From positions 11,061 through 75,060 of the IMG/VR virus record IMGVR_UViG_3300042197_004075: a stretch of DNA of 64,000 nucleotides. One strand, 5' to 3'. Below, in pieces: positions 631 to 59,723 of the stretch; position 1 is the stretch's first letter, and every line of letters begins with the position of its first letter. The DNA comes from a virus. The notes beneath the pieces are model-generated. The model ran no database searches. It had not been told where the DNA came from and saw only the letters and a list, made by a program, of their open reading frames with translations. Made by a program: the position numbers and the translations under genes.

Positions 631-1254
631 TTATATTTGAGTGTTATTGAATTCGTTTTTATCTATTTCAAAAATTTCAATATTTGACTTTTGAAACAAA
701 TATCTACTACCAATAGAATAATCAACACTATCTTTATAACAAAACAATTTTGATATTCCGACATTTATTATAACTTTTGTACACTCTATACATGGTAGTG
801 GACAATAAGCAAACATAAACGAGTCATTTAAATTACATTCAGCATTAATAATTGCGTTTACTTCTGCGTGGACACATGTACACAAACTGAGTCTTTCTCC
901 AGATTTACATCCTATTAATTTTCTGGGACATTCCTTTTTATATGCAAAATTTTCAACAAATTCATCAATACAAAAAGTGTCCAAATTCATTTTATTTTGC
1001 AAATACATTTTTTCTTCAGAACTTAACTGTGGCACAAATACATTTTTATAGTGTTCAGGTGTGTTGCAATGCGGGATTCCTCTTGGAGGCCCATTGTAGC
1101 CAATCGACAAAATTTTATTTAAATGTTTGTCTGTAATTACCACGCCAATTTGTCGTGAATAACACGAATCATTTTGTGATGCTATATATTTTGCCATATT
1201 CATATATTTTATTATAAATTTTTTGTTTCTAGCATCTTGTAAAAAGTTTGACAT
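631..1254 (-). CDS. dCMP deaminase
   Basis: IGYNG, HAEVNA and PCIECTK zinc motifs; start moved to ATG 1254 after GGAGG. Confidence 0.93.
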   Translation of the reverse strand: MSNFLQDARNKKFIIKYMNMAKYIASQNDSCYSRQIGVVITDKHLNKILSIGYNGPPRGIPHCNTPEHYKNVFVPQLSSEEKMYLQNKMNLDTFCIDEFVENFAYKKECPRKLIGCKSGERLSLCTCVHAEVNAIINAECNLNDSFMFAYCPLPCIECTKVIINVGISKLFCYKDSVDYSIGSRYLFQKSNIEIFEIDKNEFNNTQI

Positions 1255-1284
1255 AAATTCCTCCTTGTCAAAGTAAATAATAAC

Positions 1285-4564: not shown

Positions 4565-5119
4565 CTAGTAGAACAGAAAATCGTGTTCTGACAAGGATAC
4601 TTGACCAACCCTAATCTGTTTTTCTTTAGTAATTTTTTTACCTATAAAGCGACTAGCATTCCAAATGATTCTTTTAGCATAAATTTTGAACTTTGTATTG
4701 ATGATTATTGGTGAAGTTTTTGAAGGCATTTCATCTTTTGGGATAAATTTGACGGCTAACATTTCAAGTATTTCTTCTTGTTCTTCACCAAATTTACGCT
4801 TATATGCACCATGCTGTGTTTTTTTACTCCACAAATATTGCAAAGATTTATTTAATTCTGACCAAATATCATTAGATTCAATATACTTGTCTAATTTTTG
4901 AAAAACAGCTTCAATCCATGTTTGACGCTTATAATAGGAACCAGCACGAATAACACTCATAAGTAGTTCTTGCTTAAAATCTTCAATTTCATGTTGATGA
5001 TTGTTTTTACTATTATTTTGCATAAGCTGCCAAGAAACAAAATAACACAATTGACTGAATTCTTCTTCTAGAAGTTCATACTCTTCGGCAGTAATCGAAA
5101 AATTCTTGAAAGTGTTCAT
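4565..5119 (-). CDS. sigma-70 region-2-like protein
   Basis: EDFKQELLMSVIRA and FKIYAKRIIWNA resemble sigma regions 2.2 and 2.3-2.4, separated by an insertion. Confidence 0.45.
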   Translation of the reverse strand: MNTFKNFSITAEEYELLEEEFSQLCYFVSWQLMQNNSKNNHQHEIEDFKQELLMSVIRAGSYYKRQTWIEAVFQKLDKYIESNDIWSELNKSLQYLWSKKTQHGAYKRKFGEEQEEILEMLAVKFIPKDEMPSKTSPIIINTKFKIYAKRIIWNASRFIGKKITKEKQIRVGQVSLSEHDFLFY

Positions 5120-5165
5120 AAAATTTCTCCTTATTTAAGAAATATAATACTATTCAAATTTTGAG

Positions 5166-6533
5166 TCAAGAAGTTTTATTAATTTTGATCAACTGGTTCA
5201 GTTTATTACCCACTTTACCTTCAGCAAAAAGAATAACATCAGGAGCTTGATCAATTTTTTGCTCTAATAAATCCTTAATTTCATAAAACTTCTTTTTAAC
5301 CTGACTTTTCTTTACAGAAAGACAATAGGCATCATGATTTATGTAAAAAACCCTGAAACCTATTTTGTTCTGATTCTCAATTAACCTATTCAAAATTAAT
5401 TGGTTTATTGTTGCTGCTGGTGATTGAACAACAAAATTTTTAGCTTTAAATGATTCATCTGGTTTGAATATTCTAATTCTACCAAAGCAATCATCAACTA
5501 GTCCTGTTTGTGCCGCCTGTTGGTATGCTTTATCCATATACTCAAATGATGCTGAAAAGTTCAAACGAAGTGAAGAAATATAAACCTTTGCTTGTTCTAC
5601 ACTTATGTGGTTTTTTTCTGCTAATGTTGATGCTGAAATTCCGTAAATTACTGGTAAAAAAATTTCTTTTCCTAAAACTCTTGAATTGAAATTATCAATA
5701 TTAAGCACATATTTTGCAATTTGCTCATAAGGATCGGCACATGAATTTATAACTGTGCTTAATTTACCATCTTTAGACAATCCTGCAAGCACACTAGCTT
5801 CCATAGATCTATAATCAAAAACAACAAATGCTTCATCTTCATATGGATTAATTAATATATTTTTCTTTTCATCATCAAGTGTGTTAGGATTATAAGATTT
5901 TGAACCAAATATTTTTGTGTTTAATCTTCCATTATCTTGTCCCTCAACAATGTAATGAGGATAAATTTTTTCTGCGGTTAAATCATTAACAAGAAAAGTA
6001 TTTTCAATTTTTGGTAATGAAACACAAATTAGTTTTTGAAATATAGATTTGTAAATTTCTAAAACATTTGATGTAAGAAAGTCTCTAAAAGTTTCACAAA
6101 TTTGTTTAAAATTTTCAAATTTATTTTCATCTTTGATTCCAATATATTTTTTATACCAAAGAATGTCATAAATTTGTTTATAACTAATTCCAATACTATT
6201 ATTTTTTCTACAGAATAATTGAAATATTTTAGCATCTATAAATACAATTGGTTTATTGTTTTTTTCAAGAACCTTGTTTATAAAATTAATATAAGTGTTT
6301 GTGTTCCTTGAATTTAATCTAAATTCAATTTTTGTACCCTTCATGCCGTAAATTATAATATCAAGTTTAGACTCTTGTAACACATTTATATAAATGTTGT
6401 CTTTTATGATCTCAAAATATAAAAATTGTTCAATTATGCAAGCATTGAAGAATAATTGAAAGAACGGAATTGAATCATTCATGGCAGAATTTAATAGCAA
6501 AAGCTCGCTTATGTCAAATTTTGTAATTGGCAC
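5166..6533 (-). CDS. polA: short family-A DNA polymerase (start uncertain; ATG 6482 is an alternative)
   Basis: NGRL, motif A FDYRSMEA, motif B RVLGKEIFLPVIYG, FGRIR, NFVVQS, motif C NHDA. Confidence 0.88.
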   Translation of the reverse strand: MPITKFDISELLLLNSAMNDSIPFFQLFFNACIIEQFLYFEIIKDNIYINVLQESKLDIIIYGMKGTKIEFRLNSRNTNTYINFINKVLEKNNKPIVFIDAKIFQLFCRKNNSIGISYKQIYDILWYKKYIGIKDENKFENFKQICETFRDFLTSNVLEIYKSIFQKLICVSLPKIENTFLVNDLTAEKIYPHYIVEGQDNGRLNTKIFGSKSYNPNTLDDEKKNILINPYEDEAFVVFDYRSMEASVLAGLSKDGKLSTVINSCADPYEQIAKYVLNIDNFNSRVLGKEIFLPVIYGISASTLAEKNHISVEQAKVYISSLRLNFSASFEYMDKAYQQAAQTGLVDDCFGRIRIFKPDESFKAKNFVVQSPAATINQLILNRLIENQNKIGFRVFYINHDAYCLSVKKSQVKKKFYEIKDLLEQKIDQAPDVILFAEGKVGNKLNQLIKINKTS

Positions 6534-6543
6534 AAGATTTGCT
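6527..6543 (+). promoter_or_regulatory. sigma-54-type (-24/-12) promoter
   Basis: TTGGCAC-AAGAT-TTGCT, GG-N10-GC spacing exact. Confidence 0.6.
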
Positions 6544-6600
6544 TCGTGCGTGTGCGTGTGCGCCCGTGCGTTTGTATTTAATACTTATATTAATAATAGT

Positions 6601-6656
6601 GTGTTTCTAGTCCACTTCGTGGACTAGAAACACGATCTAGCACTTCGTGCTAGATC
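6601..6656. repeat. two adjacent perfect hairpins with 3-nt loops
   Basis: GTGTTTCTAGTCCAC-ttc-GTGGACTAGAAACAC (15-bp stem) and GATCTAGCAC-ttc-GTGCTAGATC (10-bp stem). Confidence 0.95.
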
Positions 6657-6679
6657 AGTTAATGGTTTTTTTATCTAAA

Positions 6680-6769
6680 TTAAACCAATTAAACCAATTA
6701 AACCAATTAAACCAATTAAACCAATTAAACCAATTAAACCAAATAAACCAATTAAACCAAATAAACCAA
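6680..6769 (+). repeat. tandem 9-bp array (WTAAACCAA) x10
   Basis: 8 copies TTAAACCAA and 2 copies ATAAACCAA, no spacers. Confidence 0.95.
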
Positions 6770-6786
6770 ATTAACAAGACGCACGA

Positions 6787-6803
6787 AGCAAATCCTGTGC
6801 CAA
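6787..6803 (-). promoter_or_regulatory. sigma-54-type (-24/-12) promoter
   Basis: Minus strand TTGGCAC-AGGAT-TTGCT; part of a 25-bp inverted repeat with 6527-6551. Confidence 0.6.
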
Positions 6804-7008
6804 AATATAATAAAATTAGAAAAAAATTTGTTTTTTAGTAGCTTTTTTCAAATCTTAATTATTTGCGTTTTAAACGACTTTGTATTAAGATTTGATTGTT
6901 GACACGGATTGGGTGCAAAAGTGGCCTTAAACGCAAAAATTAAGCCCTTAAATTGAAAGATAACTTGGCCCACATGACTTTCAACTTGTGTTTGGAGGAA
7001 CGCACCTT

Positions 7009-7710
7009 ATGATTCCTAAAGTTTATACATCGAACAACGAAGTGATTCTCAAATATTGTAATGATAAAGTGACACTTTTGGCATATGAATTATCATGTTT
7101 TTACATGAATTGTGAAATGTTTTATTTTCCAAAAATTACACACAGCAAATTTAATGTCATGAAACAGCCGCAAAAGCAATTCCTATTTAAACACATTTTA
7201 AAAATGGTAAATACCTTGAAGTCGAAATATTTACCAACTGAATTCATGGGTTATATTAAAGCGCAATTTGAAATTATGAAATTAAATGAAAACCACAATC
7301 CCATGGTTACGCCAAATATGCTTCATGGAAAAAAGGCTGAATATCGATATGCAGTTTGGTTACAAATGCTTGCAGATAAACAAATTAAGGAAAACGAAAA
7401 TACCTCAAAAATTTCTTTGAAGTATCTTGATCACTTAATGAAAATTTCAAAAAACAATATTAAAAATGTATTCGGTGAAAATGTTAAATTTCAAGATTTT
7501 GTCGATCATCAAAAAAAACTTATTTTGATGGTCAAATCAAAACAAATTGCACATGTGTATTGTTTTGCTAGTGTTTGGATAAAAAAACTTGAAAAAAGTG
7601 TTGTTGATGAAATAACAAAATTTAGCGAATCAGAAAATCTTTATAAATGCAATATTGATGATATCAATCAAATATATTTGAAATATTTTGAAAATGAACT
7701 TAATATGTAG
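7009..7710 (+). CDS. hypothetical protein (candidate origin-binding or helicase-loader protein)
   Basis: ORF with GGAGG RBS before ATG 7009; basic, helical; function inferred from position only. Confidence 0.6.
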   Translation: MIPKVYTSNNEVILKYCNDKVTLLAYELSCFYMNCEMFYFPKITHSKFNVMKQPQKQFLFKHILKMVNTLKSKYLPTEFMGYIKAQFEIMKLNENHNPMVTPNMLHGKKAEYRYAVWLQMLADKQIKENENTSKISLKYLDHLMKISKNNIKNVFGENVKFQDFVDHQKKLILMVKSKQIAHVYCFASVWIKKLEKSVVDEITKFSESENLYKCNIDDINQIYLKYFENELNM

Positions 7711-8515
7711 TGAATATTTTTTCAAGAATAGTTACTATTTCTTGTGGTTCTTGATTTGGCGCAAACCACTCATCCCATTCAGGGGTTTGAGGACGATATT
7801 CGTAGCCTTGATTTGATGACGAATGCTCGGCTCCCCAACTATGAATCAATCCAGCTTTGGGATCAAAGCAAACATAAACATTAAATTGATTTACTTTTTT
7901 ATGATCCGGTGCTTCTAAGCCGTAGCCTTTGTAGCTAAAATAAATTAAATAATTGTTAACATCCAATTGAATAACCCCTTGAAAATTCATCACTTGCGGA
8001 TGTTTCAATTTCATGTTTGAGGCTATTTTGATGACAAGATCTTGTAAATCTTGATAAGTAACATCTGGGCTTTCAAGGTCTGTTGAATCAATAAAAGTAA
8101 TAATTTCATTTGCTCTAATAGCAAGCATTTTTTCTACAGCAATGTCTTGTATTGTTAAATGTTCGTAGTCGTTAATAACTGGAATGGCATATCTTGTGAT
8201 CCACTTTGAATCTCCTTGAGCGTCTTTAATCATTCTTTGTATTGTGATTCTGCATGATCCAAGTGGAGAAAATTCAACCCTAAGTGATCCCACTTGGTCT
8301 TTTGGCCCATAAGTGACCATGTTCCCAAAATCTTTAACTGGTATCTTGGTTCCAACATTTCCAAGACTCACAATTTCATCCAAGCAAGTTTCAACTTGTA
8401 GTTGTTCAATTGGATGTTGTTCGTAATTTAATGCGATTGGTGAGGTTTTTTTATTTGGATTTGTAAACCCAAAAAGCTTATCTGGTGAAGTGCCAATCCA
8501 TTCGTAAAATTTCAT
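7700..8515 (-). CDS. hypothetical protein with capsid-targeting-like N-terminus
   Basis: 271 aa, MKFYEWI. Confidence 0.7.
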   Translation of the reverse strand: MKFYEWIGTSPDKLFGFTNPNKKTSPIALNYEQHPIEQLQVETCLDEIVSLGNVGTKIPVKDFGNMVTYGPKDQVGSLRVEFSPLGSCRITIQRMIKDAQGDSKWITRYAIPVINDYEHLTIQDIAVEKMLAIRANEIITFIDSTDLESPDVTYQDLQDLVIKIASNMKLKHPQVMNFQGVIQLDVNNYLIYFSYKGYGLEAPDHKKVNQFNVYVCFDPKAGLIHSWGAEHSSSNQGYEYRPQTPEWDEWFAPNQEPQEIVTILEKIFTTY

Positions 8516-8559
8516 AGGTAGCCTGTTATAGAATAGTTACTTGTATATTATATATTTAT

Positions 8560-8844
8560 ATGCAAACATTTAAACAATACATGGAAGCAAAACATCCTAG
8601 GAATACTTTGGACTCTAAAGAAAAATCATTCGCAGCACAACTTAAATTAGGTAATATAACGCCAGAAGGTATGCAAACCAACAGAATATCTGGAACTGAT
8701 AAAGCTGAATTTATGGCCAACCTAAGAAATTGGAGTGTTTTTCAAAAATTACCTAAAGAAAAACAAGAAACAATTTTGGATACAATCAATGATAAGCCCG
8801 ATGTAACAAGTTTTGCTGATATTTGTGATTTGATTTATGATTAA
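8560..8844 (+). CDS. putative internal head protein
   Basis: MQTFKQYMEA matches T4 IP-type leader; TATATA 5 nt before ATG. Confidence 0.65.
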   Translation: MQTFKQYMEAKHPRNTLDSKEKSFAAQLKLGNITPEGMQTNRISGTDKAEFMANLRNWSVFQKLPKEKQETILDTINDKPDVTSFADICDLIYD

Positions 8845-9363
8845 CTATTTTTTAAAGACTGCTACACCCCTGTGTGCGTAAAATCCATCATAAAGTTTTT
8901 TTTCACCCTCTGTGGATAATATTATTTTCGATTTATACTTTGACATCATTCTTGCTGATTCTTTTCTTGCTGAGTCATGAAGTACAATCGTACCATCATT
9001 AGATATTAAATCAAATGCTAGATCCAAGCAAGCATCTCGATAATTACCATCAACAAGAATAAATTCATATTTTTTATTTTTTGGTCTATTTATGTAGTTA
9101 CTTTCTGTTTTTTCAAGTATTAATGTTACTTTTGATGAAACAACATTTTTAATCAATGCATAGTGACTTGGACAATGTTCTATAGAGTACCAATTTTGTA
9201 CTGACTGATTTTGTATCGGAAAATATAAAGTTGAATTACCTGAACCCCATTCTAAACAATTTGTATATTTATTATCTGTTAATATATCATTGATGATTCT
9301 AATTTCAGAATCAGCCATCATAGGAAGAGAACCAACACAATCTTTTAATTTTTTTACACTCAT
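8845..9363 (-). CDS. class I SAM-dependent methyltransferase
   Basis: LEWGSGNST, SIEH, ILVDG, VLHD. Confidence 0.85.
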   Translation of the reverse strand: MSVKKLKDCVGSLPMMADSEIRIINDILTDNKYTNCLEWGSGNSTLYFPIQNQSVQNWYSIEHCPSHYALIKNVVSSKVTLILEKTESNYINRPKNKKYEFILVDGNYRDACLDLAFDLISNDGTIVLHDSARKESARMMSKYKSKIILSTEGEKKLYDGFYAHRGVAVFKK

Positions 9364-16287: not shown

Positions 16288-19200
16288 ATGACACTAAAAG
16301 CTTTAGCTGATTATACATTTATTTCTCGTTATGCAAGATACAATAAAGATCTTAAAAGAAGGGAAAGTTATCACGAAGCAATTGATCGTGTCAAAAATAT
16401 GCATCTTGAAAAATATCCAATGGCTAAAGCAGAAATTGAATTTGCATTTAAACATGTTCATGAAAAATTAGTTTTAGGTTCACAAAGAGCGTTACAATTT
16501 GGTGGGAAACCAATATTAAATAAAATGGCGAGAATTTACAATTGCTCGGCAGGGTATTGTGATCGAGTAAGGTTTTTTCAGGAAGCCACATGGCTTTTGC
16601 TCTGTGGTGTAGGTGTAGGCGTTAGTGTTACAAAAAATCATATTGCAAAGTTGCCTGATTTTCATACAAACCTTGAAAAACCATCTGATTTTGATACTGC
16701 CAAAACATTTGTGATTGAGGACAGCATCGAAGGATGGTCAGACGCATTTGGTGTGCTTTTAGCGTCTTATATGCCACACGATGAATTTAATGCTTATCAT
16801 GGTCGGTATGTAGAATTTGATTACAGTAAAATTAGGCCCAAGGGATCAGCCCTGTCTTATGGGGTTGGCAAGGCACCCGGCCCTGATCCATTAAAAGCAA
16901 GTCTTGAAAAATGCAGACAAGTTTTGAATACTTGTTTGACTAATAATCAAAGAAGACTTAGACCAATTGATGCAATGGATATTCTTCTTCATGCATCAGA
17001 TTGTGTTATATCTGGCGGAATTCGTAGATCTGCTGTCATTGTTTTGTTTTCAAAAGATGACATGGAAATGATGACCGCAAAAACAGGAGATTGGTATTAT
17101 ACTAATCCGCAAAGAGCAAGAAGTAATAATAGTGTGTTGCTTGACAGAAAAACAACAACTTCTGAAGAATATCACCAACTTTTTGCATCAGCAAAGCAAT
17201 TTGGTGAACCCGGAATTGTTTGGACTGATTGTGTTGAAGAACAATTATTTAATCCTTGTGTTACATCAGATACAACAGTAGTTACAAAAAATGGAATTGT
17301 TCAAGTAAAAGAATTAGTTGGACAAAAGTTTGATGCACTTGTTGATGGAAAAATTTATTCATCAACACAAGAAGGTTTTTGGAAAACAGGAACTAAAGAT
17401 GTAATTAAATTAACATTTGCATCAGGAAGAGAATTGAAACTTACATCAAATCATAAGGTAATGACATTAGACGGATGGAAAGAAGCTGGAGAAATTTCGT
17501 TTGAAGATGAAATTGTGATACATGATCATTCAGAAAACAATTCAATTAGTGTAGATAAATTTTCAAAATCTTACGCACAAGGTTATTTACTTGGATCTTT
17601 TATTGGAGATGGCAATACAACTGGTACAAAAGAAAGTGTCCAAGTAAAATGGTGGGGGAAAGATAGGTATAATTATAGAAAAGATGGTTGTGATTTATTG
17701 GAACAAGCAGAATGGCAAAATTGCCATCATAATAAAACAACAATTAATGATTGTAAAAATTCATATTGTTGTATAGAATCAAAAAAATTATTTAATTTTG
17801 CTAAAGAACAAGATTGTATTGTTGATGGTAAAAAATGTTTATCATTAAAAGCTATCCAAGGAAATTGGTCCTATCTAGCGGGAATTGTTACTGGATATTT
17901 TGATGCAGACGGAACAGTATTAGTCAAAAAACAAAAAGGGTCATCAATTAGACTAGCATCCGTTGATTTATCAAATTTAAAACATATACAATTAGTTCTA
18001 GGAGCTTTTGGAATATTTAGTAAAATATACCAAAATCGCAGGGCAGCAGGATTTTATGAATTGCCAGATGGACACGGAGGATCAAAACTCTACCCAGTTG
18101 AAGAAGCACATGAGTTGATTATTAGCAGAAATAGCATTGAAAAATATGCAAAACATATAGGCTTTAGAAACATAGATAAAAGCAATAAATTAAATAAAAT
18201 TTTATCAACAAGAGTTAGAGTGCCATACAGATCAAAATTTATTGATAAAGTTGTTAACAAAGAATTTATTGGAAAACATGATGTTTATGATTGCACTATA
18301 GACTCAATACACGCTTTTGATGCTAATGGCGTTTATGTTCATAATTGCAACGAAATTTCATTAAGAGGATATGACGAATCTGGTGACTCTGGTTTTCAAT
18401 TTTGTAATTTATCAGAAATTAATGGAAGCAAGCTTGTAAGTGCGGAACAGTTTGCTTTAGCTGCAAGAGTTGGAGCAATCGTTGGAACATTGCAAGCTGG
18501 ATATACAGATTTTGGTTACTTGGGCAAAGCAAGCGAAAATATCACAAGAAGAGAAGCACTTCTAGGTGTGTCTATTACGGGAATGATGGACAACCCAGAC
18601 ATTTGTTTCAACGCACAACTTCAGCGTGATATGGCACAATTAGTTATACAGACTAATAAAGAACTTGCTGCAAAAATAGGTATTAATCAAGCTGCAAGAT
18701 GCACAACAGTAAAGCCCGCCGGAAGCACTTCATGTCTGCTTGAGACGGCAAGTGGTATTCATCCTCATCATGCACATAGATATTTTAGACGAGTGCAAGC
18801 CAACAGTATGGAAGCACCAGTTCAATTATATAAAAATTATAATCCTGATGCTGTTGAATTATCTGTATGGTCTGCAAACAAGACTGATGATGTTATAACA
18901 TTTATGTGCGAAGTGCCAAATCATGCCTTGACTAAAGGCGATGTTGGTGCAATTAAACTACTTGAGTTTGTTAAATTAACTCAAGAAAACTGGATAGAGA
19001 GCGGAAAAGTAAAAGAACTTTGTGCGGCACCTTGGTTGTGCCATAATGTAAGCAACACAATTAATGTTGGTCCTGATGAGTGGGACGCTGTAGAAAATTT
19101 TATTTATAAAAATAAAGAATCATTTGCCGGGATATCATTGCTTGGCAACACAGGAGATCTTGATTATAATCAAGCTCCATTTACAAAAGTGCTAGAGTCT

Positions 19201-19641
19201 GACCAAATTCTTGAAAAATATGGTCATGGGTCTTTATTTGCATCTGGATTAATTGTAGATGCGCTTCATGCTTTTGATGACAATCTTTGGCAAGCATGTG
19301 ACGCATTGCTTGGGTATTTTGAAGTCAAGGCACCAATACCTCCAGAAAAACTCTGTGATAAAACTCTAAATGAACTTCAGGATAATTACAGAAAATATAA
19401 TATGAGAAATGATTGGATTAGACGAGCAAAGCAATTTGCTGAGAGATATCTGAAAAATGACACAAAAGAACTTACTTATATGCTTAAAGATGTCAACAAC
19501 ACAAAACAATGGCATGATCTTAAAAGGAGTCATGTTGAAGTAAACTATGAAAATTTGATTGAAGAAGATGATAATACAAAACTTGCTGAAACTATTGCTT
19601 GTTCTGGGCCAAATGGATGTGACCCATTCATGAGGTCTTAA
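16288..19641 (+). CDS. nrdJ: class II (B12-dependent) ribonucleotide reductase, intein-containing
   Basis: YNC, GVGVG, IEDSIEGW, GGIRRSA, RARSNNS, GEPG, NP|CNE, FCNL, KPAGS, C-terminal CSGPNGC. Confidence 0.93.
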   Translation: MTLKALADYTFISRYARYNKDLKRRESYHEAIDRVKNMHLEKYPMAKAEIEFAFKHVHEKLVLGSQRALQFGGKPILNKMARIYNCSAGYCDRVRFFQEATWLLLCGVGVGVSVTKNHIAKLPDFHTNLEKPSDFDTAKTFVIEDSIEGWSDAFGVLLASYMPHDEFNAYHGRYVEFDYSKIRPKGSALSYGVGKAPGPDPLKASLEKCRQVLNTCLTNNQRRLRPIDAMDILLHASDCVISGGIRRSAVIVLFSKDDMEMMTAKTGDWYYTNPQRARSNNSVLLDRKTTTSEEYHQLFASAKQFGEPGIVWTDCVEEQLFNPCVTSDTTVVTKNGIVQVKELVGQKFDALVDGKIYSSTQEGFWKTGTKDVIKLTFASGRELKLTSNHKVMTLDGWKEAGEISFEDEIVIHDHSENNSISVDKFSKSYAQGYLLGSFIGDGNTTGTKESVQVKWWGKDRYNYRKDGCDLLEQAEWQNCHHNKTTINDCKNSYCCIESKKLFNFAKEQDCIVDGKKCLSLKAIQGNWSYLAGIVTGYFDADGTVLVKKQKGSSIRLASVDLSNLKHIQLVLGAFGIFSKIYQNRRAAGFYELPDGHGGSKLYPVEEAHELIISRNSIEKYAKHIGFRNIDKSNKLNKILSTRVRVPYRSKFIDKVVNKEFIGKHDVYDCTIDSIHAFDANGVYVHNCNEISLRGYDESGDSGFQFCNLSEINGSKLVSAEQFALAARVGAIVGTLQAGYTDFGYLGKASENITRREALLGVSITGMMDNPDICFNAQLQRDMAQLVIQTNKELAAKIGINQAARCTTVKPAGSTSCLLETASGIHPHHAHRYFRRVQANSMEAPVQLYKNYNPDAVELSVWSANKTDDVITFMCEVPNHALTKGDVGAIKLLEFVKLTQENWIESGKVKELCAAPWLCHNVSNTINVGPDEWDAVENFIYKNKESFAGISLLGNTGDLDYNQAPFTKVLESDQILEKYGHGSLFASGLIVDALHAFDDNLWQACDALLGYFEVKAPIPPEKLCDKTLNELQDNYRKYNMRNDWIRRAKQFAERYLKNDTKELTYMLKDVNNTKQWHDLKRSHVEVNYENLIEEDDNTKLAETIACSGPNGCDPFMRS
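17257..18345 (+). mobile_element. intein with LAGLIDADG homing endonuclease (363 aa)
   Basis: Starts CVTSDT, block B LTSNHKV, LLGSFIGDG and VTGYFDADG motifs, ends VHN before Cys+1. Confidence 0.93.
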
Positions 19642-23457: not shown

Positions 23458-24891
23458 TTACCTCATAGTAAATGATGCGTTTGGACGCAGAGTACCATCA
23501 GTAAATCTTTCAAGGCCAACCTTTGCAATTTTAGCATTAAAAACATTATCATTGGTGTATTTCCCAACTGCATCAACTTGAAGCTGATTGATAAGTTCAT
23601 TATAAACCCGTAAGAAATTTCCACAACAAGTTTCTTTAAGTTTTGCAGTAAAAGTCTTGTTAACAAAATAATGAATGAAAGCAAGAGTTTGTTCAGCGTT
23701 TACAAATAAGTTTCCAGATTTAATAGCATCGAATTCCTTTTGGTTATCCGAATTGTTCAGAGAAATTTTACAATGTTGTGTCCAATCACAAACTGTTTTG
23801 GAATCAACATCAGAAAGTTTAGATCGAGCTATTGATTCGTACATGGAACCAATTTCACGAACCAAATTTTTATCAGCACTTGCCGAAATAATATTTCCCA
23901 GCATTTCGTCATATTTTTTTGTTACATCTGGTTTAAGGTCTTCAACAGAACGACTCATTTTAATATGGTCGAAAATAGTTTCTTTAATAAGTTTGCCATC
24001 TGTTTCACTCATAAGTAGAGAAATCTTCTCGTTGCTGATTAGGGGCAAATAGAACTCACATAGTTTTTTGTTAGCTTTTATATACTTTTTAGCTTGTTCA
24101 TAATTGTTTTCAGCAGTAATGAATGTTTTGGCTTTTCTCAAGTTGCCTGTATTCATAAGTTCATGCAAAGTTTTTTCCACAGGTCCATTAATAAGCAAGG
24201 ACTTAAGTTTAGAAATGTTGCTGTTACGAGGAATCACATCTTCAAGATCACCACCAATAATGTGATTATTAATTGCATAGTCTAACCGACGAGGAGATAT
24301 ATGATCTTTAAACTCAACAGGGAGATCATTCCACCATTCAACAGCAGCTAAACCAATATCATCACCATATTTGGTCTTAAAGTATTGAACATCGCACTCA
24401 TAAGGAATTGGCAAAAAGATTTCAAACCTATCTCGTTGGGGTGGATCGAGTTTCTCAACATCATATACTTCTTCTTCAGTATAAGGATTAATTGCTGCCC
24501 AAACGACTTTTAGATTGGGAAACTTTTTGCCATTAATTGACTTAAACTGAATCAATTCTAGAACAGCATTTCTGATCTTCTTGGGCGCACGATTGAACTC
24601 ATCAAAGAAAATAGCTTGTACTTTGGAACTGTCGCTCAATGCCCTAGGTCGGACAAAATCAAGCACCCTGTTTCCCGATGGGTCCAAAGTTTCTTTTGGG
24701 ACTCCGATGAGATCCGTCCAAGGATCAAGCGTAGCAGCAGAAAAATAGAGATACGACTCACCCAAAACTAAGCCAGCAGATTCAAATACCTGTTTAATCA
24801 TGGCAGTCTTGCCAACGCCATGCTTTCCCTCTAGCAAGACATTGAGATTGTTATCGAGATAAAATTTTAGCTTGTTGATTTTACTAGACAC
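23458..24891 (-). CDS. MoxR-like AAA+ ATPase
   Basis: GKHGVGKT, DLIGVP, FFDEFNR, AAIN, RDRF, SPRR. Confidence 0.85.
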   Translation of the reverse strand: MSSKINKLKFYLDNNLNVLLEGKHGVGKTAMIKQVFESAGLVLGESYLYFSAATLDPWTDLIGVPKETLDPSGNRVLDFVRPRALSDSSKVQAIFFDEFNRAPKKIRNAVLELIQFKSINGKKFPNLKVVWAAINPYTEEEVYDVEKLDPPQRDRFEIFLPIPYECDVQYFKTKYGDDIGLAAVEWWNDLPVEFKDHISPRRLDYAINNHIIGGDLEDVIPRNSNISKLKSLLINGPVEKTLHELMNTGNLRKAKTFITAENNYEQAKKYIKANKKLCEFYLPLISNEKISLLMSETDGKLIKETIFDHIKMSRSVEDLKPDVTKKYDEMLGNIISASADKNLVREIGSMYESIARSKLSDVDSKTVCDWTQHCKISLNNSDNQKEFDAIKSGNLFVNAEQTLAFIHYFVNKTFTAKLKETCCGNFLRVYNELINQLQVDAVGKYTNDNVFNAKIAKVGLERFTDGTLRPNASFTMR

Positions 24892-57959: not shown

Positions 57960-59723
57960 ATGAAGCGCAAACTCATTAATTATGATGTCTTTAAGGCGAT
58001 TGAAAATAATTCAATTCGTCAAGCAGAAAAGGAATTGACTGAAAATGTCGATTCAATTGCAAAAGCCATTGGTCGTGAAAACATCGATCTCTATACAATC
58101 AACGAGAACGATGCCACCTTCACTACCGACTCTGGCACCCTTATTCATGCAACTTATCTTGTCAATGACGATAGCTTAATTCTTGAAAACATCGAGGAAC
58201 TCGTTGTTGATCAGGAATCACAGCTTAACGAAGGCAAGAAATTTCTCGATGAGATGGTTGATAAAATCCTTGAAGATCGTAACGATCTTGCAAGTGATGC
58301 ATTTTCAAACTATTTTTCTCTCCCCCTCATCAGGTCAAACCTTCAGGAAGGTGTCATCAACGAAGCAAAGAAAGGCAAGAAGATGCCAGCTTGGTTGTTG
58401 GAACGCTTCAAAGGCAAAAAACACAAGAAACATAAAAAAATGAGCAAAAGAGAAGAAAAACTTGGCAAACACAAGAACAAAAGGAACAAGCACATTGGCT
58501 CCAAGATTCCCGCCAAGAAACTTGTTGAGTGGAATAACCTTGCAAAAAATATCCTTGAATTCGTTGATTTCAAGGAAAACGGATTTGTCAATAATTTCAG
58601 CGTAGCCCGTGACGCAAGCGGAAATGTAACATCAATCAAAATTCCTCGTTCAAGACTTCAGAATGAAGCCAAGATTCTTGGATTCAAGTGGAAGACACTA
58701 AACACCGAAGTCATGGATCAAAGGGATCTTTCAAAGTGCCTTGGAAAGAATGAACTTTGGGGCAAAGCTTGCGCCGACATGAAGAAATTTAATGCAATGT
58801 CCGATGGTGCAAAACTTGAAGAAACCATCGAAAATGTCGTTGCGGCATGGCCTCACATTATCTATCTCACCGAATCGGAACTCGCCAATCTTATCAAGGA
58901 CACCCTTGTAAGTGAAGGCATTCGCAATTTCGATGACGAAGTGTGCCAATTCATTGCAGAAGGTGTACTTCGTACAGCTTTTGATAATTACAAGGACAAA
59001 GTCAATGGTATTTATAAGCTAGCTAATGTGTTTGAGAGCGGTGATTATGATCACTTCAAACTAGTTTCAGAAGCACTTTATGACAAACTTGATGAAGTTC
59101 GTCACGCTGAAGAAACTGCTCTTTCAGATCTTTACAAAGCTGTTAACGAAGTGGCAAGCGTTGCTGAAAGACATGGTGATAGCACCACCAAGCATGAAAT
59201 TGGCACTATTCTTGCAGGAATTGAAAACGCAATTCGCACAAATGCTGATAGCGTTGCAGTTATGGAAGAAGCAGCACTTCTTCTCAAGGGAACCGCTGAA
59301 ACCAATCTACCAATGTCAGGTACTTGGAATGTCAGCGATAAAGTTGAAGATACCATTACTGGCGAAGTCCCTGTTCTTAGCAAATATGCAAAAGAAGATG
59401 GATTCCCCGGAAAATATGCCTCAACTAAGGCTCCATTTGTTAGCGATGGAAAAAACTATCGCAAACAAGGTGTTGATGACCTAAAGAGCGGTTATCTCAC
59501 CATGAATGACAAAGATGTTTATCCAAATGTGAGCAACCCTTATGTTCCAAAAGCTGGCGATTTTAAGATTCATGGCGAAAAAACCATCGATGGAGATAGC
59601 GATCAACTAGCACACGATGGTGGTAACGACACATGGCCATCCTTGAAAAATCCCTACATTCCTTCAAACGGCATGGCGATGTCTGACAGCTTGAAGCTTT
59701 TGAAATCTAGCGAAAGGAGCTAA
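57960..59723 (+). CDS. prohead core protein
   Basis: Between portal and gp21; multiple LxE/INE sites; AGGAG RBS. Confidence 0.6.
   Translation: MKRKLINYDVFKAIENNSIRQAEKELTENVDSIAKAIGRENIDLYTINENDATFTTDSGTLIHATYLVNDDSLILENIEELVVDQESQLNEGKKFLDEMVDKILEDRNDLASDAFSNYFSLPLIRSNLQEGVINEAKKGKKMPAWLLERFKGKKHKKHKKMSKREEKLGKHKNKRNKHIGSKIPAKKLVEWNNLAKNILEFVDFKENGFVNNFSVARDASGNVTSIKIPRSRLQNEAKILGFKWKTLNTEVMDQRDLSKCLGKNELWGKACADMKKFNAMSDGAKLEETIENVVAAWPHIIYLTESELANLIKDTLVSEGIRNFDDEVCQFIAEGVLRTAFDNYKDKVNGIYKLANVFESGDYDHFKLVSEALYDKLDEVRHAEETALSDLYKAVNEVASVAERHGDSTTKHEIGTILAGIENAIRTNADSVAVMEEAALLLKGTAETNLPMSGTWNVSDKVEDTITGEVPVLSKYAKEDGFPGKYASTKAPFVSDGKNYRKQGVDDLKSGYLTMNDKDVYPNVSNPYVPKAGDFKIHGEKTIDGDSDQLAHDGGNDTWPSLKNPYIPSNGMAMSDSLKLLKSSERS

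Follow-up and report, generated by a model that had tools for sequence, protein, structure and literature searches.

Replication origins that are activated or primed by transcription are familiar from phages and plasmids, among them lambda ori with its promoter pR, T4 oriF and oriG, the primary origin of T7, and ColE1, whose RNA II is extended by Pol I. Face-to-face promoters are likewise known, from the pR/pL switch of coliphage 186. We know of no replication origin that is gated by sigma-54. Here we describe a small cassette (~280 bp) in a stretch of viral DNA of 64,000 nucleotides (hereafter the window; bases 11061-75060 of the 75,060-bp IMG/VR virus contig IMGVR_UViG_3300042197_004075, ~31% G+C), in which two elements of the sigma-54 promoter type point towards each other from either side of a gene-free hairpin core beside polA, the gene for a short family-A DNA polymerase. 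The parts are known and the arrangement is new. Judged from sequence, the cassette is probably a site where replication can be switched on, or else a control point. Published phage use of host sigma-54 is rare, the cited case being Pseudomonas phage YuA with its host-sigma-54-dependent promoters (Ceyssens et al. 2008, cited by PMC5053324 and by bioRxiv 10.1101/2023.10.13.562163).

As in YuA and RpoN promoters generally, the two sites have an exact -24 GG and -12 GC within the extended consensus YTGGCACGr-N3-TTGC and, again as in YuA, genes for sigma-54 and for its activator were not found in the available phage DNA. Unlike in YuA, there are only two predicted sites per record of >100 kb, and these face each other over the hairpin core rather than standing directly upstream of genes. 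The cassette also departs from typical RpoN promoters in that no upstream activator site is recognisable, and no conserved one was identified near the arms. Like the origins of lambda, T4, T7 and ColE1, it would direct promoters into an AT-rich, non-coding core with repeats and palindromes, next to replication genes that include a family-A polymerase. It differs from all four in having convergent promoters of sigma-54 type, in an unwinding element that is not outstanding, and in the absence of a clade-wide G-rich R-loop tract, identified iterons or an initiator.

The first-pass annotation, made from the letters of the window alone, had described an inverted repeat of 25 bp with an exact, inward-pointing TTGGCAC-N5-TTGCT in each arm. 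A repeat search returned the same structure, with 24/25 positions matching (96% complementary) and the arms 227 nt apart. In both arms the GG and GC doublets are exactly 10 bp apart. Exact TGGCAC-N5-TTGC occurs three times in the window against 0.09 expected, and 0 of 100 shuffled sequences reach three. The third copy (59201-59215, plus strand) lies within an open reading frame (ORF) of 587 aa and is probably a chance match. The longer form of the sigma-54 consensus, YTGGCACGr-N3-TTGCW, is reportedly that of Barrios et al. 1999.

Related contigs, which are from freshwater phages, extend this beyond one genome. Homology to polA yielded 4 IMG/VR and 8 metagenome loci at 33-72% identity, and motif scans contributed further loci; twelve or more of the related contigs have the sigma-54 consensus in both arms. 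The order polA, cassette, gene of ~235 aa is constant in these relatives. The first-pass annotation had named conservation of both arms beside polA, and of their GG and GC positions, as one way to check its reading. TGGCAY-N5-TTGC stands upstream of polA in all nine of the loci that were retrieved by polA alone and include upstream DNA, and eight of the nine hold the convergent pair, with the 15-nt cores spanning 205-241 bp end to end. The motif was not found at loci where polA is only 23-24% identical. Twenty-one distinct arms give the consensus T-TGGCA-Y-(G/a)-r-NN-T-TTGC: T-TGGCA, TTTG and GG are invariant, the position after TGGCA is always a pyrimidine (21/21) and the next one G in 17/21, the C of GC is kept in 20/21, and the spacer positions vary freely. 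The polA-side promoter, P_L, is present in 12/12 lineages examined; its partner, P_R, is exact in ten, reads TTGT at -12 in contig L015 and has decayed in L012. Within each lineage the two arms resemble each other beyond the sigma-54 core, and those of distant relatives share only that core and differ in their centres. The extra TTCGTGCGT that completes the 25-bp repeat of the window is lineage-specific. Moreover, in ten records (~627 kb) the motif is confined to the cassette, as one pair of arms per record and always inward, with the intragenic match at 59201 as sole exception; the reversed pattern, used as control, gave 0-1 matches. Consensus conservation and this near-confinement support the earlier interpretation of the arms as RpoN-type promoter elements. 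We consider their sigma-54 identity well supported by the comparison of relatives, and it is likely that they are real sigma-54 elements.

The interior of the cassette was found as first annotated, with a GTGCG-type tract, an AT-rich stretch, two perfect hairpins and a 9-bp array between the arms (Table 1), the array reading (TTGGTTTAA)n on the minus strand. The earlier statement that it holds no credible gene also stands, because the only ORFs between the arms are three of 40-63 aa and two of these cross the array, which is missing from the relatives. The view of the array and the GTGCGT tract as core parts was not borne out, both being lineage-specific. The array was not found in the relatives examined; a different duplication of ~40 bp replaces it in L004, and public Logan contigs break within it. 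The GTGCGT tract occurs in the close relatives L004, L012 and L013 and, behind the other promoter, in L015; it was not found in the rest of the more distant group of relatives. TAC-TTA-GTA palindromes similar to the quasi-palindrome of the window do occur in relatives.

The hairpins follow a common pattern across the clade. In fifteen distinct hairpins the stems are perfect and 9-16 bp long, the pair that closes the T-N-C loop is always C:G, and through compensatory changes 12 of the 13 stem positions show 2-4 kinds of base pair. Read on the minus strand, the loop is GAA in 14 of the 15 and GCA in L012. The window hairpins have a DNA fold z of about -10 to -11. The distant group has a second hairpin, of ~22 bp, with the apex GA-GCGAAGC-GA, the L015 version of hairpin 2 being GCGTAGC (loop GTA). 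Extraordinarily stable DNA mini-hairpins obey a rule of G first, a free middle base, A last, C:G closure and tandem G.A pairs, and such G-N-A (GNA) mini-hairpins are reported at the priming sites (complementary-strand origins) of G4, St-1 and alpha3, in RSF1010 ssiA as CCGAAGG, and in the hairpin promoters of the N4 virion RNA polymerase (Kimoto & Hirao 2026, PMC13037366). In the cassette the GNA loop and tandem GA/AG pairs satisfy this rule on the minus strand only. Since the plus-strand version, with T.C mismatches and a TNC loop, has no such stability, the minus strand would be the one that folds. The likeness to the G4, ssiA and N4 signals therefore lies in C:G-closed G-N-A triloops on one strand with a variable middle base and, in the distant group, in a literal GCGAAGC with tandem G.A pairs. 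Unlike those signals, the cassette loops cap long perfect stems (10-24 bp) in a double-stranded DNA phage and, unlike in G4 and N4, neither a primase nor an N4-like polymerase was recognised among the phage proteins scanned. L012 has lost P_R and retains both hairpins. P_R is the only visible source of minus-sense RNA, so none is expected in L012, which favours a role of the hairpins at the DNA level. An intrinsic, bidirectional terminator was considered and rejected: the window has a T7 run (seven T) 11 nt after hairpin 2 only, the relatives have no U-tract, and the ordinary terminators of this phage look different from the cassette hairpins.

Table 1. Features of the cassette and its flanks in window coordinates, with example loci of the 19-nt hairpin on other viral contigs
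Feature	Position	Strand	Basis or remark
polA, short family-A DNA polymerase, 438 aa	5166..6482	-	Pfam DNA_pol_A, E 1e-25
polA sigma-70-type promoter	6488..6517	-	TTGACA-18-TAAATT or N17-TTAAAT; promoter scan 10/12
Left arm, P_L	6527..6551	+	sigma-54 -24/-12 element, core 6528-6542, reads rightward; predicted start ~6554
GTGCGT-type G-rich tract	6546..6571	+	start of predicted P_L transcript; GTGCGT x2.8 at 6546-6562
AT-rich spacer with quasi-palindrome AATACTTATATT	6572..6600		read from sequence
Hairpin 1	6601..6633	-	15-bp perfect stem; minus-strand loop GAA, C:G closure (TTC on plus)
Hairpin 2	6634..6656	-	10-bp perfect stem; same minus-strand C-GAA-G apex (TTC on plus)
Tandem array AATTAAACC x10.7 (9-bp unit)	6678..6774		lineage-specific AT-rich repeat filler
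Right arm, P_R	6779..6803	-	sigma-54 -24/-12 element, core 6788-6802, reads leftward; predicted start ~6775-6777
Candidate promoter of 233-aa gene	6863..6891	+	TTGCGT-N17-TAAGAT, read from sequence
233-aa gene, right-hand neighbour	7009..7710	+	conserved synteny; protein alignment of relatives; start ATG 7009
19-nt hairpin, example loci (viral contigs L026-L061)	L035:3843-4123, L056:6037-6939, L029:921-1748		

The cassette lies between divergent genes, since polA starts at 6482 on the minus strand and the 233-aa gene at 7009 on the plus strand. The start of polA is the ATG at 6482 and not the GTG at 6533, M1 aligning with four relatives. From their sequence, both flanking genes appear to have outward promoters of their own. 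That of polA stands back to back with the left arm, and its -35 (AGTCAAA on the plus strand) is invariant in five relatives. Because its -10 ends ~6 nt before the ATG, the polA mRNA would be nearly leaderless. The candidate promoter of the 233-aa gene would be weak, as it falls below the promoter-scan threshold; TTGCnT-N16/17-TAnAAT recurs in L004, L006 and L011. The 233-aa protein itself gave no match in Pfam or PHROG, and its AlphaFold model (mean predicted local distance difference test score, pLDDT, 61) no fold match in the PDB. A 20-nt inverted repeat (6862-6881 / 6918-6937, TTTGCGTTTTAAAC / GTTTAAGGCCAC-like) brackets the candidate promoter and the start of the leader. Further on, at ~6940-6990, an ACCC-containing box and a small hairpin are kept in five relatives, three of the five having TAGACCC. 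This region may be an operator or a leader structure.

The contig encodes a T4-like replication and recombination set comprising a gp32-like single-stranded-DNA-binding protein (SSB), a RecA-type recombinase, UvsW-like and Dda/RecD-like helicases, a DnaB-like helicase, Mre11/Rad50-like proteins and a ribonucleotide reductase, and the short family-A polymerase stands in place of the family-B enzyme. Both the recombinase (L024:7083-9365, minus strand) and the large subunit of the ribonucleotide reductase (window 16288-19641, plus strand) have an intein with a LAGLIDADG endonuclease domain. The public runs that contain the sequence of the window are freshwater metagenomes, with no RNA run listed among them. 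CheckV places the completeness of the contig at 15%, and the records of the clade cover 15-23% of each genome. A blastn search with window positions 5000-9000 against cultured and deposited phages gave no matches. When polA and the helicase served as tblastn queries, the closest deposited phage was the uncultured LR756511.1 (595 kb), with identities of 26% (polA) and 34% (helicase); the cassette was not found in it and its count of sigma-54 motifs equals that of the control. Rfam searches, permissive on the region and at the gathering threshold on the whole 75 kb and the relatives, gave no relevant match, and a tRNA search found none. Shine-Dalgarno use is frequent in the phage genes, which argues only against a Bacteroidota-like host. 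The Sigma54_DBD domain was not found on the phage contig.

We favour, tentatively and at somewhat less than an even chance, a reading of the cassette as a sigma-54-gated, origin-like cis-acting DNA element of the replication module. Its most specific version, a bidirectional origin fired by host sigma-54 RNA polymerase with the GNA-capped minus-strand hairpins as a landmark for priming or helicase loading, is more doubtful. From the sequences compared, we infer sigma-54 binding, transcription, hairpin extrusion and replication initiation at the cassette, in the following order. The sigma-54 holoenzyme (E-sigma54) would dock on both arms as closed complexes, and a hypothetical host enhancer-binding ATPase would trigger inward firing, in all cases from the promoter on the polA side and in most from the other one as well. 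Transcription would open the ~230-bp core, with assistance from negative supercoiling behind the two outward sigma-70-type promoters. The perfect palindromes could then extrude, the minus-strand form being capped by C-GNA-G triloops, for which the distant group has the canonical GCGAAGC between tandem G.A pairs. DNA synthesis could begin at the extruded hairpin, which would resist SSB and mark the site for the DnaB-like helicase, a primase and the short PolA. An origin role is plausible because the cassette is located in the replication module, occurs once per record, carries this type of mini-hairpin and lies 0-7 kb from the minimum of cumulative GC skew in four contigs. Its fixed position between polA plus helicases and a conserved gene fits the same role, as do the flanking outward promoters.

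A number of observations weigh against an origin. The first-pass annotation had looked to a switch in skew, and a minimum does lie near the cassette; the skew change coincides with changes of gene strand, and the four contigs are syntenic and so not independent. Both promoters run into AT-rich tracts, and these reach no higher than the top 1.4-4% of segments in ease of melting. Positive G-C skew behind both promoters is limited to three sequences, those of the window, L004 and L013, whereas behind P_L the distant group is neutral, and G-rich initial transcripts are missing in half of the clade. Since the G-rich tract is missing in the distant group and the array is unconserved, neither an R-loop primer nor iterons can be general. 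Convergent transcription should build positive, over-winding supercoils between the promoters and not negative ones. No primase was recognised among the ORFs scanned and no initiator among the proteins scanned. T4-like phages often use several origins as well as recombination. Moreover, each promoter may do no more than drive the gene that it faces on the far side of the cassette. Nor was a genuine Sigma54_activat protein found in the available 15-23% of each genome. The weak matches to this family come from a MoxR-like AAA+ ATPase (~480 aa; window 23458-24891, minus strand; homologues in G001, G006, G007 and G009) and are limited to its P-loop region. This ATPase was rejected as an enhancer-binding protein because the copy on the contig of the window has no GAFTGA.

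The distribution of the hairpin apex bears on the origin question from both sides. The 19-nt apex of hairpin 2 in the distant group, CTCTTCGCTNCGCTCAGAG (on the other strand CTCT-GA-GCGNAGC-GA-AGAG), is present in 39 viral contigs. Eleven of these are clade cassettes, and in ten of them sigma-54 cores flank the apex on one or both sides at a distance of ~100 bp; the L010 contig stops short of the far arm. The other 28 are unrelated contigs of 45-69% G+C, at least 13 of which have CTCTTCGCTNCGCTCAGAG within the linker of a ~200-490-aa ORF, where it is read in frame as the peptide SSLRSE, and seven of those ORFs match replication-initiator-type families (DUF1376, DnaT domain, HTH_36). The gene that follows the initiator-like ORF in L056 is a DnaC/IstB-like loader. 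L035 has 4-5 iterons, a purine-rich tract and then the 19-nt hairpin, an order shared with the annotated lambda ori (inside gene O). L029 has a second, synonymous copy in which a compensatory G:C to A:T change keeps the hairpin, with a GTA loop. In our analysis these occurrences in initiator-like genes were counted in favour of the origin reading of the cassette. On the opposite side, the hairpin is a dispersed repeat with several copies per metagenome-assembled genome (MAG), on bacterial and one archaeal MAG contigs (L063-L142) from Chloroflexota, Acidobacteriota, Desulfobacterota, Planctomycetota, Firmicutes and other phyla. The MAG copies have the consensus GA-CTCTTCGCTNCGCTCAGAG-TGACA and a frequent inverted partner 15-25 nt upstream; 71 of 88 lie outside long ORFs, most commonly between convergent genes. 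As a dispersed intergenic repeat in many MAGs, the hairpin is thus a general stable-hairpin module and not an origin marker. A search for an Rfam family and full-text literature searches for the motif and its variants found nothing relevant. On L032, an unrelated high-GC viral contig, a Pistol ribozyme (1210-1274, plus strand; RF02679, 51.8 bits) lies ~530 nt from the 19-nt hairpin.

The arms may instead be face-to-face secondary promoters that depend on sigma-54, with P_R serving the polA-helicase operon from upstream and P_L the 233-aa gene, which we regard as possible but rather unlikely. Complementary 5′ leaders of ~230 nt with shared hairpins would then give host-state-dependent expression together with mutual interference or antisense control, and the hairpins would work in RNA as stabilisers or RNase III sites. 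Each sigma-54 motif does face, in the sense direction, the gene beyond the opposite arm, a point that the first-pass annotation had missed, and this synteny holds in every relative. An intrinsic terminator between promoter and gene is absent in most lineages, strictly Watson-Crick stems are expected if sense and antisense RNAs must both fold, and YuA shows that host sigma-54 promoters are usable for phage genes. The resemblance to 186 pR/pL is also apparent, with two convergent promoters a few hundred bp apart between divergent genes. Unlike in 186, both would be of sigma-54 type, the genes seem to have separate proximal promoters, and the overlap contains conserved DNA-type hairpins. Indeed polA has a conserved, good sigma-70-type promoter directly upstream and the 233-aa gene a candidate one. 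Leaders of 300-450 nt that run across another promoter are unusual. Moreover, the GNA and tandem-GA signature on one strand suggests a single folded strand under DNA rules, and the hairpins of L012 persist without P_R.

Two further explanations were considered. The arms could dock E-sigma54 without giving rise to productive transcription, the stable closed complexes acting as roadblocks or insulators around the hairpin core or capturing host sigma-54. Such complexes are known to be stable and to stay silent until an activator acts; neither an activator gene nor a recognisable upstream activator site was found, and the arms stand back to back with outward sigma-70-type promoters. Two sites per genome would make a poor sponge, however, and host activators that act from solution exist. 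Moreover, with records that cover so little of each genome, an activator may sit elsewhere, which weakens this explanation, and we think it improbable. The arms may also have nothing to do with sigma-54 and be sites for binding or recombination by a phage protein, as in an invertible segment, a miniature transposon or a looping regulator. A 25-bp inverted repeat around ~230 bp does resemble invertons and miniature inverted-repeat transposable elements (MITEs), and the arms of each lineage match beyond the core. However, an unrelated protein is unlikely to require exactly YTGGCACGr-N3-TTGC, which distant arms share while differing mid-arm, and profile scans found no recombinase nearby. An inverton was rejected on those mid-arm differences, on the identical orientation of the interior relative to polA in all lineages, and on the lack of strand-changing joints in public contigs; a MITE was rejected on the single pair of arms per record and flanks (TGTAA and AATAT) without target duplication. 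Overall we consider such sites very improbable. We rank the gated origin-like element first, followed by overlapping leaders, silent docking and, last, recombination or phage-protein sites.

In summary, a clade of large freshwater phages retains, in its replication module, a pair of sigma-54-type sites that point towards one another over a core of hairpins, and the evidence for this cassette is comparative and goes beyond one motif match. Its strand-specific GNA hairpins represent a natural case, in double-stranded DNA phages, of a motif known mainly from single-stranded replicons, and they connect to a widely dispersed 19-nt hairpin that is apparently undescribed. The cassette is small, with its key bases defined. 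If the sites fire, replication initiation or the expression of replication genes would be tied to an enhancer-dependent, signal-controlled host polymerase, and lytic development would be coupled to host physiology in a novel way. If the cassette is indeed a sigma-54-gated origin, a host ATPase, and hence a host signalling pathway, would set the timing of phage DNA copying.

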